Assembly: GCA_030645735.1 (NCBI GenBank)
Contig: JAUSNP010000006.1
Span: 196,095 to 260,094, forward strand
Length of the DNA: 64,000 nt
Source: Candidatus Moraniibacteriota bacterium
GTDB taxonomy: Bacteria; Patescibacteriota; Minisyncoccia; Moranbacterales; UBA2206
Direction of reading: 5' to 3'
Shown: in pieces, positions 18,667-51,205 of the stretch
Position numbering within the stretch: position 1 is the first letter of the stretch
Layout of the letters: the number at the start of each line of letters is the position of its first letter
The notes under the pieces: model-generated
The model's input: the letters and a program-made list of their open reading frames with translations, nothing else
Databases searched by the model: none
Told to the model about the DNA's origin: nothing
Program-made: the position numbers and the translations under genes

Positions 18667-19305
18667 TCACTCTTCCAGCAAATATCTTCTCATCTCACTT
18701 CTGCGTTGATTTATTTCTTTCGCGTTTATATCAACAAATTCACTATAATCACTCCTGTCTTTAAATTGACTTAAAATAATTTCTGAATTACATAATTTTT
18801 CAACACTATCATCCAAGTAGTTTTTCAAACTTGATCTAAATTCTCTTGAATTATGAATAATATTGTTGCCATTAACATAAGCTGACAGGTACAATAAATA
18901 TTCATTGCTATTTACATGCACAGCCTTGAATCTTCCTTGAAATAATGAACCACTTCTTTTGTTCCTGTGATTAAAATATCCTGTATAGCCACCGCTAATG
19001 CGTTTCATAAATTCAGATATACCGCCATCTCTCAACTGTTTTAATATGAAATGAAAATGATTTGGAAGTAAATTATAGGCAATTATCTCAACCAATGCAT
19101 CATTCTGTAGGGGTTTCACCCCTACAGAGTTTGTTTTACTTTTTATATATAAACTAATGACTGGCTCAATTTGATTAAATTCTCTTATTGATTTAAGAAA
19201 TCTTGAATAATCATATTTGTCCAAAAAAATATCTCGCTTCTCCACTCCGCGATTAAATATATGATAATATTCTCCATTTACAAACTCAAAAGAAAAATTT
19301 CCCAT
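18667..19305 (-). CDS. IS200/IS605-family Y1 (HuH) transposase, REP-associated tyrosine transposase (RAYT)-like, carrying an in-frame REP insertion
   Basis: N-term EYYHIFNRGVEKRDIF (YHV..RG..IF motif), HuH motif NHFHFIL, Tyr-containing helix YLLYLSAYVNGN; residues SVGVKPLQ are encoded by REP copy 2. Confidence 0.7.
   Translation of the reverse strand: MGNFSFEFVNGEYYHIFNRGVEKRDIFLDKYDYSRFLKSIREFNQIEPVISLYIKSKTNSVGVKPLQNDALVEIIAYNLLPNHFHFILKQLRDGGISEFMKRISGGYTGYFNHRNKRSGSLFQGRFKAVHVNSNEYLLYLSAYVNGNNIIHNSREFRSSLKNYLDDSVEKLCNSEIILSQFKDRSDYSEFVDINAKEINQRRSEMRRYLLEE
19105..19127. repeat. REP palindromic element copy 2 (inside RAYT ORF, in frame)
   Basis: CTGTAGGGGTTTCACCCCTACAG perfect 9-bp arms, 5-nt loop. 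Confidence 0.85.
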
Positions 19306-19327
19306 CTTTTTTGTTTTATTTTTATAT

Positions 19328-19349
19328 CTGTAGGGGTGAAACCCCTACG
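19328..19349. repeat. REP palindromic element copy 3 (degenerate right arm)
   Basis: CTGTAGGGGTGAAACCCCTACg followed by ttaCCCacac. Confidence 0.75.
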
Positions 19350-19847: not shown

Positions 19848-19883
19848 CCGTAGGGGTTTCACCCCTACATTACCCCTACATTA
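19848..19883. repeat. REP palindromic element copy 4 (with duplicated right arm)
   Basis: CcGTAGGGGTTTCACCCCTACAttaCCCCTACAtta. Confidence 0.8.
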
Positions 19884-23949: not shown

Positions 23950-24774
23950 CTAGATGTCCTCCGCGATCCGTGGAGCCATTTTTCGGTAGGACCAGATGCT
24001 GAAGGCGAAAGCGCCGAGCACGATGGAGATAAAGGCAGTGTATTGAGTGGAGCTGGCGAAGTGATTATTAATCAAAGATTCTTTGGTGAAGTGGATGATG
24101 AAGGCCAAAGGATTGAGCAGAATCAATGTGTGATATTTAACTGGCAAAGTTACTAAAGGATAGATGATGGGTGAAGCATACATGATGATCATGAGAAGCA
24201 CTTCCCAAATCATGGAAAGGTCACGGAATTTCACGTAGAGTGGTGCCGTTATCAGAGCAAAAGACAGGATTATAATATAAATGAAAACTGAGAACAGCAG
24301 AAATACGCCAATGGCAGCAAGACTTGGCATGAAACCCTTGAGAGCGAAAAAGAAAACAATCACGACTAGATTCATTAGGAATATCAAGGTGGCGTTGATA
24401 GTGGAAGCCAAAATGATGGTCCAACGCGGAACATAAATTTTGGTCACCAATTGTGATTTGCTCAACAGCGAATTCATGCCGGCACCGGTACCCTCAGCAA
24501 AAAAATAGAACATCATCAAAGAAACCAAAAGTTGCAAAGAATAGGTATCTGTTCCATCGACATTTCTTAGATTGAAAACTGAAGAGAAAACAAAATTCAA
24601 AATCGCAAAAGTCAAAAGCGGTTTCAAAAGCGCCCATAAATAGCCCAAAACACTGCCATGATAGCGCAGTTTGAAATCGGTTTTGGCTAGCATCCAAATT
24701 AGCTCTTTGTAATTCTCATGTTGTCTCATATAGAAGTCCATAAAGTCCGTAAAGCTTAAAGTCCATAAAGCCAT
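23950..24774 (-). CDS. wzm: polysaccharide ABC exporter permease (ABC-2 family) Wzm/TagG-like
   Basis: YKELIWMLAKTDFKLRYHGSVLGYLWALLKPLL ABC-2 signature start, 6 TM; first ~14 codons overlap the decamer repeat array so true start may be at a downstream Met. Confidence 0.8.
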   Translation of the reverse strand: MALWTLSFTDFMDFYMRQHENYKELIWMLAKTDFKLRYHGSVLGYLWALLKPLLTFAILNFVFSSVFNLRNVDGTDTYSLQLLVSLMMFYFFAEGTGAGMNSLLSKSQLVTKIYVPRWTIILASTINATLIFLMNLVVIVFFFALKGFMPSLAAIGVFLLFSVFIYIIILSFALITAPLYVKFRDLSMIWEVLLMIIMYASPIIYPLVTLPVKYHTLILLNPLAFIIHFTKESLINNHFASSTQYTAFISIVLGAFAFSIWSYRKMAPRIAEDI

Positions 24775-25182: not shown

Positions 25183-25222
25183 AGACTTTATGAACCTTAT
25201 GGACTTGATGGACTTTTGACTG
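25183..25222. repeat. decamer array C
   Basis: GACTTTATGAACCTTATGGACTTGATGGACTTTTGAC. Confidence 0.6.
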
Positions 25223-27567: not shown

Positions 27568-27576
27568 AAAAATTTT

Positions 27577-27670
27577 AGTCCGTAAAGTCTGAAAGTTCTT
27601 AAAGTCGAAAGCTAACAATGCTTTATGGACTTTATGAACTTTATGGACTTTTGGACTTAGTCGACTTTTA
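27577..27670. repeat. decamer array E (palindromic)
   Basis: AGTCCGTAAAGTCTGAAAGTTCTTAAAGTCGAAAGC-taacaatg-CTTTATGGACTTTATGAACTTTATGGACTTTTGGACTTAGTCGACTTT. Confidence 0.75.
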
Positions 27671-30813: not shown

Positions 30814-30896
30814 AGTCAAAAGTCCATCAAGTCAATAAAGTCCGTAAAGTTATAGGAACTTTCGACTTTACGGACTTTGGACTTTACGGACTTTGA
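30814..30896. repeat. decamer array G (palindromic)
   Basis: GTCAAAAGTCCATCAAGTCAATAAAGTCCGTAAAGTTATAGGAACTTTCGACTTTACGGACTTTGGACTTTACGGACTTTGAAC. Confidence 0.75.
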
Positions 30897-32236: not shown

Positions 32237-32624
32237 ATTCAGTGCCGGACCAAAAGTAGTCATTCTATACAAACTTCTCAATGATAGTCTATTGGTTATG
32301 CTAACATTTTTCATGCTTACCCTGCTGGCTGAAGGTGCATTGCCAGGAATCATTTCCTCCCACATTGGACTCTACAAAATTGTAATTGCCATTCTTGTGA
32401 ATATTTTAGCTATCACAGCGATTGGAAAAATCATCAAGGCGCCTGAAAACGCAACCAACAAAAAAATAGTAGAGACGCGATTAATCGCGTCTCTACTTAT
32501 CATCTGCGCGCTATTGCTTTTCAACAGTCTGCTCAAGCTCAATATATACTTGAATATTTTTATTCTAATCACACTCTTTGTGATTAGCTATTTTTTGATT
32601 AGAGTTTTTCAAGAAGAAAAATAA
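32220..32624 (+). CDS. small membrane protein (3-4 TM), hypothetical
   Basis: hydrophobic segments; overlaps end of preceding gene by 17 nt. Confidence 0.3.
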   Translation: MFPQIKFSAGPKVVILYKLLNDSLLVMLTFFMLTLLAEGALPGIISSHIGLYKIVIAILVNILAITAIGKIIKAPENATNKKIVETRLIASLLIICALLLFNSLLKLNIYLNIFILITLFVISYFLIRVFQEEK

Positions 32625-32704
32625 GTCCATAAAGTCTTTAAAGTCAAAAGTCCGAAAGCACTGGAGCTTTTGACTTTATGGACTTGACGGACTTTAAGGA
32701 CTCT
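32624..32704. repeat. decamer array H (palindromic)
   Basis: AAGTCCATAAAGTCTTTAAAGTCAAAAGTCCGAAAGCactggaGCTTTTGACTTTATGGACTTGACGGACTTTAAGGACTC. Confidence 0.75.
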
Positions 32705-42764: not shown

Positions 42765-42848
42765 AGTCTATAAAGCTGAAAGTCTATAAAGTCTATAAAG
42801 CATTTTGCTTGACGGACTTGATGGACTTTACGACTTTATGGACTCTGC
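42765..42848. repeat. decamer array I (palindromic)
   Basis: CTATAAAGCTGAAAGTCTATAAAGTCTATAAAGC-attttgc-TTGACGGACTTGATGGACTTTACGACTTTATGGACTC. Confidence 0.75.
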
Positions 42849-49936: not shown

Positions 49937-49969
49937 TTTTTTAACTTTAAAAACTTTATGGACTTTTGG

Positions 49970-50710
49970 CTATACCACTGGCAACCATTTCGCGCTCAGT
50001 AGCACCAAACTAATTATCACTGAGAAAAAAATCATATTAGCCACTACCCGCTTTTTGCTCAATAAATTGAGTAAAAAACTCTGCACGAGATCCCACAGAA
50101 CATAGTATAGTATAAGGGCAATCACGCCTGTCGTCAAATAGCCAAATGGCCAAAAATTCATCGTCCAAACAAGTTCAGCCATCACCAATGCCAACAGAAA
50201 GCTATAAATCCAGGCGGTTTTTCGATCATCTGGCTTGATAATTAGAAAATATTGATAACTCACCAACAGTGTTACCACCAGATACACTAGCATCAAATAA
50301 TAGAGGGGTACGAAAAAATTCAGATACAAGCCGTAAGCGCCTGAATAGGTGAAGAAAATCGTGGCTGCCATAGCGGCCATATTCATACCCTTGGCTGTTT
50401 GATCGCCCGCATACAATCCCAATCGATAGGCGCCAAAAAGCGCCAAATAATACATACCGCTGGCTAGGAATATAAAAATTTGTTCTTCAAAAGACAGGGT
50501 TATTAGATATAAAAGTGCTGCCGAAGACAAGGTGAAGAAAATTGGCAAAACCGCGAAAAACCATTTACCGCCAATTTTTCTGGCTCCGTAGGCCGAAATT
50601 ACAAGCAAAGACAAAATTATCCAAACTACCAAATCTTCCTTCCACAAAATCAACTCCAAACCAAGGAGAAAAATGAGGCTTTGCAAGAGTGGTTGTAATC
50701 GTAGAAACAT
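49970..50710 (-). CDS. polytopic membrane protein (~7 TM), hypothetical
   Basis: hydrophobicity pattern only. Confidence 0.4.
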   Translation of the reverse strand: MFLRLQPLLQSLIFLLGLELILWKEDLVVWIILSLLVISAYGARKIGGKWFFAVLPIFFTLSSAALLYLITLSFEEQIFIFLASGMYYLALFGAYRLGLYAGDQTAKGMNMAAMAATIFFTYSGAYGLYLNFFVPLYYLMLVYLVVTLLVSYQYFLIIKPDDRKTAWIYSFLLALVMAELVWTMNFWPFGYLTTGVIALILYYVLWDLVQSFLLNLLSKKRVVANMIFFSVIISLVLLSAKWLPVV

Positions 50711-50722
50711 CCGAAAAATTTA

Positions 50723-50906
50723 GAGCCTGTTCAAAATCTCATGCCTAGATAAAATTTTCTAATTTCGAGCGAAAACCATGAAAAGTGAGAAAGGCTATCG
50801 AGATAACCTGACGAGCTTTGAAGGGTTTGCAGTCGAAATTAGAAGATTTTAGCAGGCAAGCAATATATTAGTTTTTAAAATAAGCGGTGAGATTTTGAAC
50901 AGGCTC
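50723..50906. repeat. 184-nt element bounded by perfect 19-bp terminal inverted repeats (GAGCCTGTTCAAAATCTCA / TGAGATTTTGAACAGGCTC) with nested inner inverted repeat
   Basis: seen directly; inner CTAATTTCGAG/GTCGAAATTAG pair; candidate structured ncRNA or MITE. Confidence 0.6.
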
Positions 50907-50972
50907 TTATTACTTAATATCCTTACTATATCATTTTCCCGTGGCAAAAACAAATTTCATGACTTTGCCACA

Positions 50973-51010
50973 AAAAAAGACCTGCATTTTCATAGCAGGT
51001 CTTTTTTCTG
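50973..51010. terminator. bidirectional rho-independent terminator
   Basis: A7, AGACCTGC-attttcatag-GCAGGTCT, T6. Confidence 0.7.
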
Positions 51011-51025
51011 AAATATCAAATCAAT

Positions 51026-51205
51026 TTATTCAACTGAAATTGCGCTCACTGGGCAGCTGTCAGCTGCTTCTTGACAATTGCAATCGCCACATTCCTCGGA
51101 GATAACCTTAGATTTTCCATCCTCGATTTTGAACACTGTTGGACAAAGTGACTCACAAGTCCCACATCCGATGCAAAGGTCTTCATTTACTACTGCTTTT
51201 GACAT
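51026..51205 (-). CDS. small [4Fe-4S] ferredoxin (59 aa), not in ORF track
   Basis: MSKAVVNEDLCIGCGTCESLCPTVFKIEDGKSKVISEECGDCNCQEAADSCPVSAISVE: Cx2Cx2Cx3CP and a second C-cluster. Confidence 0.65.
   Translation of the reverse strand: MSKAVVNEDLCIGCGTCESLCPTVFKIEDGKSKVISEECGDCNCQEAADSCPVSAISVE

Follow-up and report, generated by a model that had tools for sequence, protein, structure and literature searches.

What is a 184-nt stretch of DNA that begins and ends with perfect inverted repeats and lies between genes, a gene for a structured RNA or a mobile element? The question arises at positions 50723-50906 of the 64,000-nt stretch of Candidatus Moraniibacteriota DNA analyzed here (contig JAUSNP010000006.1; the whole stretch is called the window), ahead of a gene for a DUF5656 membrane protein. 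The first-pass annotation of this DNA had left two answers side by side, a 6S-like non-coding RNA and a miniature inverted-repeat transposable element (MITE). We conclude with high confidence that the element is a MITE of 184 bp, which is non-autonomous and derives from an IS5-family insertion sequence (IS) of the IS1031/ISCaa8-like subgroup. That half of the earlier proposal is borne out by a target-site duplication, by copies at unrelated sites, by empty orthologous sites and by full-length IS5-family partners. The parts of the element and its junctions are listed here.

50720-50722, no strand: target-site duplication, copy 1; TTA on the plus strand, TAA in the canonical orientation
50723-50906, minus strand: the very probable MITE, 184 bp, ends GAG...CTC; aligned with copies from other genomes and metagenomes
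50723-50741, no strand: terminal inverted repeat, DUF5656-side arm; GAGCCTGTTCAAAATCTCA on the plus strand, invariant across subfamilies
50742-50856, minus strand: foldback in the interior, made up of stacked helices and small internal loops, from predicted folds, covariation and conservation
50857-50887, minus strand only: asymmetric bulge of about 28-30 nt, CCGCUUAUUUUAAAAACUAAUAUAUUGCU, from predicted folds and pairwise alignment
50888-50906, no strand: terminal inverted repeat, promoter-side arm; exact reverse complement of the other arm
50907-50909, no strand: target-site duplication, copy 2; TTA on the plus strand

The perfect 19-bp terminal repeats and the 146-nt core described before were both confirmed by repeat search and exact matching: GAGCCTGTTCAAAATCTCA at 50723-50741 has its exact reverse complement at 50888-50906. 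The repeat search itself returned arms of 20 nt (50722-50741 and 50888-50907, 100% complementary), because the outer A/T of the flanking TTA duplication adds one pair to the 19. Even when three mismatches are tolerated, the window has just two matches to the 19-mer, one per strand (chance expectation 0.03), and searching it with a profile of the family (nhmmer) yields a single copy. The inner inverted pair of the first-pass annotation is real and proved longer than described, with 50-nt arms (50750-50799 and 50802-50851, 74% complementary) that contain TTCTAATTTCGA and TCGAAATTAGAA. The canonical orientation of the family, with GAGCCTGTTCAAAATCTCACCGC first, corresponds to the minus strand of the window and thus has the same sense as the DUF5656 gene downstream.

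Inside the 184 bp there is no open reading frame (ORF) of at least 40 aa, and a consensus scan called neither a promoter nor a terminator within the element. A plus-strand ORF of 24 codons (MKSEKGYRDNLTSFEGFAVEIRRF) spans 50778-50852, with its ATG at 50778 and its stop codon at 50850-50852. In the sister species discussed below it differs by one synonymous and one V-to-A change, and a 16-nt insertion in that species places AGGA five bases ahead of its ATG. We judged it unlikely to be a gene, as it runs antisense to local transcription and, by hand reading, its ATG and frame are lost in other subfamilies; its presence is probably fortuitous.

The junctions of the element read TTA/GAGCC...GGCTC/TTA and thus contain a 3-bp direct repeat. 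Identical TNA flanks, which can be TTA, TAA, TGA or TCA, border 35 of 45 two-armed elements with these ends. The middle base of the flank is repeated directly and uncomplemented, including in the pairs TGA/TGA and TCA/TCA, so the flanks reflect a duplication upon insertion rather than additional paired bases of the inverted repeat. Most elements with non-matching flanks have one flank in common with another contig; this points to assembly chimeras, in which metagenome assemblers joined sequences through the repeat. Past TNA, the insertion sites have no consensus.

Copies elsewhere were found by two scans. A two-arm pattern made of the 12-nt inner arm halves, 140-170 nt apart, was run against 185,579 genomes, one per species. 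It retrieved seven loci, namely four contig hits in the metagenome-assembled genome (MAG) CG2_30_37_16 and one hit each in three further genomes (Moranbacteria RIFCSPLOWO2_12_FULL_48_12, a Howlettbacteria MAG and GW2011_GWA2_39_41). Since two of the contigs in CG2_30_37_16 (L011 and L012; L numbers designate comparison loci) have the same right flank, the number of independent sites behind its four hits may be below four. The scan did not hit the window's own genome, which probably does not represent its species in the set. A scan of Joint Genome Institute (JGI) metagenomes with the 19-mer gave 61 loci. After removal of duplicates, about 20 distinct insertion sites with homologous interiors were obtained, 150-250 bp long and all intergenic; five contigs with the element come from a single metagenome sample. 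The search for further copies of the 19-bp repeat that had been suggested earlier thus brought none more in the window and about 20 sites in other genomes and metagenomes. With respect to neighboring genes, some copies are sense and others antisense (about five and about four, respectively, by hand reading, flanking ORFs below 80 aa not being called), so that the whole family cannot be regarded as dedicated to leaders. Viral contigs scanned with the two-arm pattern and the apical core gave no match and hence no link to phages.

The same scans brought up some divergent relatives. L056 (2878-3191) holds a 314-bp variant with TGA flanks from a Moranbacteria population, in which most of the element is duplicated internally; it occupies the same insertion site as the 187-bp versions L013 (7085-7271) and L067 (2902-3088). 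Six further elements of 314-612 bp have the same 19-bp ends around interiors that are unrelated to the window element and contain 63-66% GC: L028 (8046-8461), L040 (8431-8914), L043 (1763-2175), L045 (615-1226), L051 (580-893) and L057 (7156-7571). The interiors that we read, those of L028, L040 and L045, are built of tandem repeats. Their flanks match (TTA or TCA) except in L043 (TTA/TTG). These GC-rich MITEs reside in contigs of high GC content that approach 1 Mb in some cases, so the same ends serve very different hosts.

Comparison of orthologous loci dates the insertion. In the sister species Moranbacteria GW2011_GWA2_39_41, whose DUF5656 protein is 88% identical, the element is present at the identical site (L001, L016, L054). 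It is missing at eight more distant orthologous loci (L003, L004, L006-L009, L082 and L083; 76-84% protein identity), where there is a spacer or leader of 44-160 nt only; L082 is empty despite the same ferredoxin-DUF5656 gene order. With the element and one TAA taken out, the window reads ...TGATATAGTAAGGATATTAAGTAATAAATTTTTCGGATG, the same layout as at the empty sites. The insertion occurred in the common ancestor of the window genome and GW2011_GWA2_39_41.

Full-length elements with these ends belong to the IS5 family. The one in L058 (107-1200; 1094 bp, TTA flanks) encodes a 262-aa transposase that matches NF033580 (IS5-family; 209 bits, cutoff 110) and contains DDE_Tnp_1 and DUF4096; homologues of this type are present in MAGs of the Candidate Phyla Radiation (CPR). 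An 863-bp element with TAA flanks in L066 (2267-3129) has the same transposase family in two frameshifted ORFs. In a Candidatus Spechtbacteria MAG, L080 contains an element of 840 bp (253-1092, TAA flanks) with the ends GAGCCTGTTCAAAATCT, the first 17 of whose 19 terminal bases are the same as in the MITE, and a similar IS element is found in a Nomurabacteria MAG (L081). Annotated L. plantarum and Spiroplasma plasmid relatives have GAACCTGTTTAAAATCT ends and TAA/TTA flanks, and the Spiroplasma one is annotated as ISCaa8. Within the IS5 family, ISCaa8 has been placed in the IS1031 group (PMC3196728), whose members commonly insert at a site of 3 nt (PMC2516522). The window element has in common with IS5 elements of this group (ISCaa8-like, ISWpi1-like) that its ends start with GAG/GAA and read GARCCTGTTYAAAATCT and that it is flanked by a 3-bp TNA duplication. 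The end features of the IS1031 group are in part those of the ISfinder table.

Thus, the GAG-starting ends and the 3-bp target duplication typical of IS1031-type elements are found in the window element, whereas the DDE transposase that goes with them is not, as no transposase is encoded. Being non-autonomous, the window element is therefore an IS5 derivative and not itself a member IS. The full-length relatives measure 840-1094 bp and encode DUF4096 plus DDE_Tnp_1 (NF033580) in a single ORF or in two frameshifted ones; the window element, in contrast, lacks a transposase, is dissimilar in its interior beyond the 19-bp ends and has a conserved, covarying foldback. A different IS5-family type, with HTH_Tnp_4 and DDE_Tnp_4, is ended by the exact 19-mer in L020 (195-1693). 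Its partial ORF scores 126 bits with NF033581, just below the cutoff of 140, and the 1.7-kb contig showed no second end.

In the mechanism we propose, the MITE, which encodes no protein, has 19-bp ends (GAGCCTGTTCAAAATCTCA) that would be bound and cut by a DDE transposase supplied in trans from a full-length IS. Insertion takes place at a TNA trinucleotide that becomes duplicated (TTA...TTA in the window), and the window copy landed in the short DUF5656 leader, about 18 nt past the presumed extended -10 element and 11 nt ahead of the ATG. We infer the mobilization in trans, the transcription and any effect on expression. Several observations weigh against the assignment as a MITE. The 64-kb window holds a single copy only, and tblastn with IS5 transposases found none in the window or in the fetched loci with homologous MITEs. 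The candidate partner IS elements are known from other genomes. The sister-species MAG has one copy, and the subfamily was otherwise not found in the 185,579 genomes or the JGI metagenomes. Finally, the window copy is conserved between species in a way that is unlike a neutrally decaying transposon remnant and needs further explanation, to which we return below.

Could the element nevertheless be a 6S-like or other free-standing structured RNA gene, the closing helix of which merely resembles terminal repeats? Its length of about 185 nt and its rod-like overall fold are those of 6S RNA (RF00013), and the element is closely preceded on the minus strand by an extended -10 box that resembles a promoter. 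The fold is also predicted to be very stable. A 201-nt segment that includes the element (50715-50915) is predicted to form a single long hairpin on either strand (-76.6 kcal/mol and z -9.0 for the plus strand, -70.7 kcal/mol and z -10.8 for the minus strand), and none of 200 shuffles matched the native folding stability. However, the predicted shape is a near-unbroken helix with a single one-sided bulge, and the central bubble open on both strands that 6S RNA would require is not present in the predicted folds. Covariance models, which the first-pass annotation had named as the check to make, gave no support either. At the gathering score, Rfam found no 6S RNA in the whole window and only a S-adenosylmethionine (SAM) riboswitch; at E<=10, neither RF00013 nor another 6S model nor any other bacterial non-coding RNA family matched the element within 50600-51050. 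Below threshold, terminator-type small RNA models matched the neighboring terminator (50906-51050), and models of plant or animal microRNA hairpins fell far short of the threshold.

An alignment of ten diverse copies of the family separates the two ends of the argument. In the interior helices 3-7, 14 of 56 pairs are altered on both sides while still paired, and 95% of cells are paired; the covariation score was reached by none of 500 shuffles, and sliding the 3' partners abolishes the signal. Covariation of the interior helices would also be expected of a structured RNA gene. The terminal helix (helix 1), on the other hand, has 13 of its 19 pairs invariant and no compensatory change. This conservation in sequence without compensation is as expected of a site bound by a transposase or another protein, and the closing helix matches IS5-family ends. 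The long closing helix with a central bulge that had suggested a 6S architecture is thus a helix without covariation and a bulge on one side. Together with the 3-bp target duplications, the many copies at unrelated sites, the presence of several copies in another genome and the absence from the syntenic site in relatives with a flanking protein 76-84% identical, these features make an RNA gene very improbable.

The pairing of the interior might alternatively stem from homogenization of one arm by the other. A wholesale version of this process is argued against by the conserved asymmetric bulge and by persistent G.U positions. The interior foldback may be under selection, for which a role as RNA or as single-stranded DNA is conceivable alike. 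A hand count from the pair table of the family gave about 14 versus about 10 G.U-versus-A.C events for the two strands.

Two further candidates were considered. Only the layout of the minus strand, with an a1/a2-like inverted repeat, a short 5' unpaired region and a long hairpin, speaks for the msr-msd template of a retron. The neighbors are genes for a ferredoxin, DUF5656, a PpiC-type and an HtrA-type protein, with no reverse transcriptase among them, and the target duplications, the multiple copies and the association with IS5 transposases account for the inverted repeat. We regard a retron as more improbable still than an RNA gene. A hammerhead ribozyme, looked for because of CTGACGAG...GAAA on the plus strand, was rejected as there is no stem II between the motifs and no Rfam ribozyme match.

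The setting of the element bears on its possible present role. All local genes are on the minus strand. The gene-free gap of about 300 nt between a membrane-protein gene and a bidirectional terminator, reported previously, was recovered as a gap of 315 nt (50711-51025) that is bounded by the ATG of the DUF5656 gene and the stop codon of the ferredoxin gene. The neighboring features are the following.

49970-50710, minus strand: DUF5656 membrane-protein gene (Pfam PF18900, E 5.5e-9)
50925-50933, minus strand: putative extended -10 element of DUF5656, TGATATAGT, about 18 nt upstream of the MITE
50973-51007, no strand: bidirectional terminator-like hairpin, AAAAAAGACCTGC / GCAGGTCTTTTTT, with 13-nt arms that are 100% complementary and a 9-nt loop
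51026-51205, minus strand: ferredoxin gene, 59 aa, upstream neighbor of DUF5656

Genes of the PpiC type and the HtrA type are further neighbors. DUF5656 has more than 700 homologues, and those that are named come from Patescibacteria/CPR MAGs; by the protein names, the host of the window is a Candidatus Moranbacteria MAG. The terminator-like hairpin, which ends the upstream ferredoxin gene and lies outside the MITE, had escaped the terminator scanner, which is limited to loops of up to 8 nt. Similarly, the consensus promoter scan did not call TGATATAGT because there is no good -35 element. A TGnTAnnAT-like box is found about 30-45 nt ahead of the ATG in most orthologues without the MITE (e.g. 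L003, L006, L007, L009 and L082), with about 25-35 nt separating the box from the ATG. The ATG of DUF5656 follows 11 nt past the TA(A) duplication, which places the MITE within the 5' leader. The initiation region is U-rich, with the U-tract UAAAUUUUU in the 50709-50717 region, and has no Shine-Dalgarno sequence. From its position in the leader, we infer that the MITE is very probably co-transcribed with DUF5656 as a hairpin of about 186 nt at the 5' end of the mRNA.

How well is this copy conserved? Between the window and GW2011_GWA2_39_41, 177 of 183 aligned bases of the MITE are the same (96.7%), and three indels separate the two copies. For the same pair of species, identity at four-fold sites is 52.5% in DUF5656, 35.6% in HtrA, 40.7% in PpiC and 70% in the ferredoxin gene (n=20). 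Whole coding sequences are 76-88% identical, the promoter flank about 89% and codon positions 1+2 of DUF5656 about 90.6%, and the spacer farther upstream is unalignable. In a 12-kb syntenic alignment with 81% identity overall, the MITE is the top 184-nt segment by substitution-only identity (97.0%), followed by segments in conserved coding genes with 94-95%. This island of conservation ends where the MITE ends. The binomial probability of six or fewer substitutions in 183 positions is 1e-3 at the rate of codon positions 1+2, 1e-4 at that of the promoter flank and 1e-10 at the regional mean.

The differences that did arise are distributed unevenly. The apical 49 nt are identical in the sister-species copy (probability of zero changes about 0.003-0.008). 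None of the six substitutions breaks a pair, and four of them as well as all three indels fall in the bulge or in internal loops; the bulge (50857-50887) alone contains three of the six substitutions and one of the three indels. Of the two substitutions in stems, one yields a G.U pair on the sense strand and the other converts an ancestral G.U into an A-U pair. The longest indel is a 16-nt insertion in the sister copy, CCTGCCTGCTGGCAGG (L001 2414-2429; near position 50772 of the window), which forms a perfect 6-bp hairpin within an internal loop. It is predicted to fold as a branch of its own and to leave the main fold intact.

An immobile copy at an orthologous site cannot be maintained by selection for transposition; hence either selection acts at the level of the host or the sequence is younger than its flanks. 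The first possibility adds to the assignment as a MITE rather than replacing it: the copy would have been domesticated, with purifying selection by the host on a structured RNA in the DUF5656 leader. On the sequence comparison, we give this a little less than an even chance. It would explain why the MITE is 96.7% identical when four-fold sites of DUF5656, HtrA and PpiC are 35.6-52.5% identical, why the most conserved 184-nt segment in 12 kb stops at the MITE ends, why the copies differ by as few as six substitutions (binomial probabilities of 1e-3 to 1e-10) and why no substitution breaks a pair and the fold is kept despite the 16-nt insertion. Also, as there is no target consensus past TNA, independent insertion at the same TAA is unlikely. 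One possible route to such selection is that the tight foldback stops a 184-nt insertion from disturbing the short U-rich initiation region; it may in addition serve as a 5' stabilizer or as a hairpin-plus-U-tract attenuator. Another possible route is that the apical part acquired a binding function. On the other side, the comparison involves a single species pair and sequences alone, the G.U/A.C events do not clearly favor either strand, and the invariant apical sequence has no function that we could assign. The two orientations of family copies, which do not fit an element dedicated to leaders, also speak against domestication. Furthermore, in two strains with another copy (L013 and L067), the MITE differs at two positions, while about 640 nt of flank are unchanged save for one 39-nt indel.

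The second possibility is that the similarity reflects a recent shared ancestry of the MITE sequence only, without selection. The sequence could have been inserted recently and independently into one TAA in both species, converted ectopically from other copies, or exchanged between the lineages by recombination over a short tract. The family has been active recently elsewhere, as one MAG and one metagenome sample have near-identical copies at several sites, and its occurrence in several CPR lineages implies horizontal spread. Transposition or conversion would also produce an island of conservation that coincides with the ends of the element. However, both species carry the element in the same TAA and in the same orientation although the sites are specific only for TNA, and neither the 185,579 genomes nor the JGI metagenomes contained a donor copy of the subfamily. 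In addition, three indels including the 16-nt insertion separate the two copies, which are therefore not very recent. We consider this explanation less likely than not, yet far more credible than an RNA gene or a retron.

Because target sites are specific only for TNA and no donor of the subfamily was found, we favor selection at the host level, acting in the simplest case on a compact RNA foldback beside the U-rich initiation region. The comparison of the two species suggests that the host now constrains the window copy, probably as a leader RNA hairpin. More specifically, the foldback with its invariant 49-nt apical region might now be functional in the DUF5656 leader, kept while synonymous sites neared saturation, in addition to selection on the fold across the family; this we put forward tentatively.

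A MITE in such a position has parallels. Correia elements of Neisseria and the enterobacterial ERIC/IRU sequences are bacterial MITEs in transcribed intergenic regions. They resemble the window family in their length of about 100-200 bp, in having terminal inverted repeats and short target duplications and in lying often beside start codons. They are also long palindromes, if imperfect ones, and form RNA hairpins upon co-transcription with neighboring genes. Their ends, hosts and sequences differ from those of the window family, and Correia elements duplicate TA. Processing by RNase III, promoter activity and binding of IHF are traits of the Correia/ERIC type that are not known for the window family. 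Among eukaryotes, the transposases of PIF/Harbinger elements are related to those of the IS5 family. The Tourist-type MITEs of this group share the 3-bp TWA/TNA duplication, the short terminal repeats, a size of about 100-300 bp and mobilization in trans, although their terminal and interior sequences are unrelated to the window element. Compared with 6S RNA, the window element differs in that it has no covariance-model match and no two-sided bubble, is multi-copy with target duplications and is missing in relatives.

Other repeats and structures occur in the window. A second, unrelated repeat family is represented by the 13-mer AAGTCCATAAAGT, which is found 38 times with up to two mismatches versus 2.2 times expected. 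It occupies about 12 intergenic sites in 15416-49965 (e.g. 24734-24771, 25185-25215, 27576-27650, 30820-30893, 32623-32703 and 42780-42845), where tandem 9-nt units, (AAGTYCRTA)n, often form two facing inverted clusters capable of long hairpins. One of these units, at 49953-49965 in the DUF5656-HtrA spacer, is kept in the sister species. A palindrome of about 21 nt, GTAGGGGT(TTC/GAA)ACCCCTAC, has three copies, one inside the called ORF 18667-19305 (19107-19128) and two between short minus-strand ORFs (19327-19349 and 19849-19869); these look like repetitive extragenic palindromic (REP)-like or terminator-like hairpins. The SAM riboswitch (RF00162) at 581-706 on the plus strand scores 50 bits against a gathering score of 44.4 and is the sole Rfam family in the window.

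At the simplest level, these findings remove a false lead to a 6S-like RNA: the long and perfect inverted repeat between the genes turns out to be a small transposon, which is an ordinary finding. They also document a MITE family and its likely IS5-family partners as circulating among several CPR lineages with very small genomes. The literature that we searched contained nothing relevant on the terminal-repeat sequence or on MITEs in Patescibacteria/CPR. The window copy itself offers a clean comparison of filled and empty sites in a 5' leader, combined with unusually strong conservation. If the covarying hairpin is selected throughout the family, selection would extend beyond the transposase-binding ends to the fold, be it as single-stranded DNA in transposition or as RNA. 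And if the conservation of the window copy reflects selection, it would be a compact case of a mobile element co-opted into gene expression in an organism that is not yet culturable.

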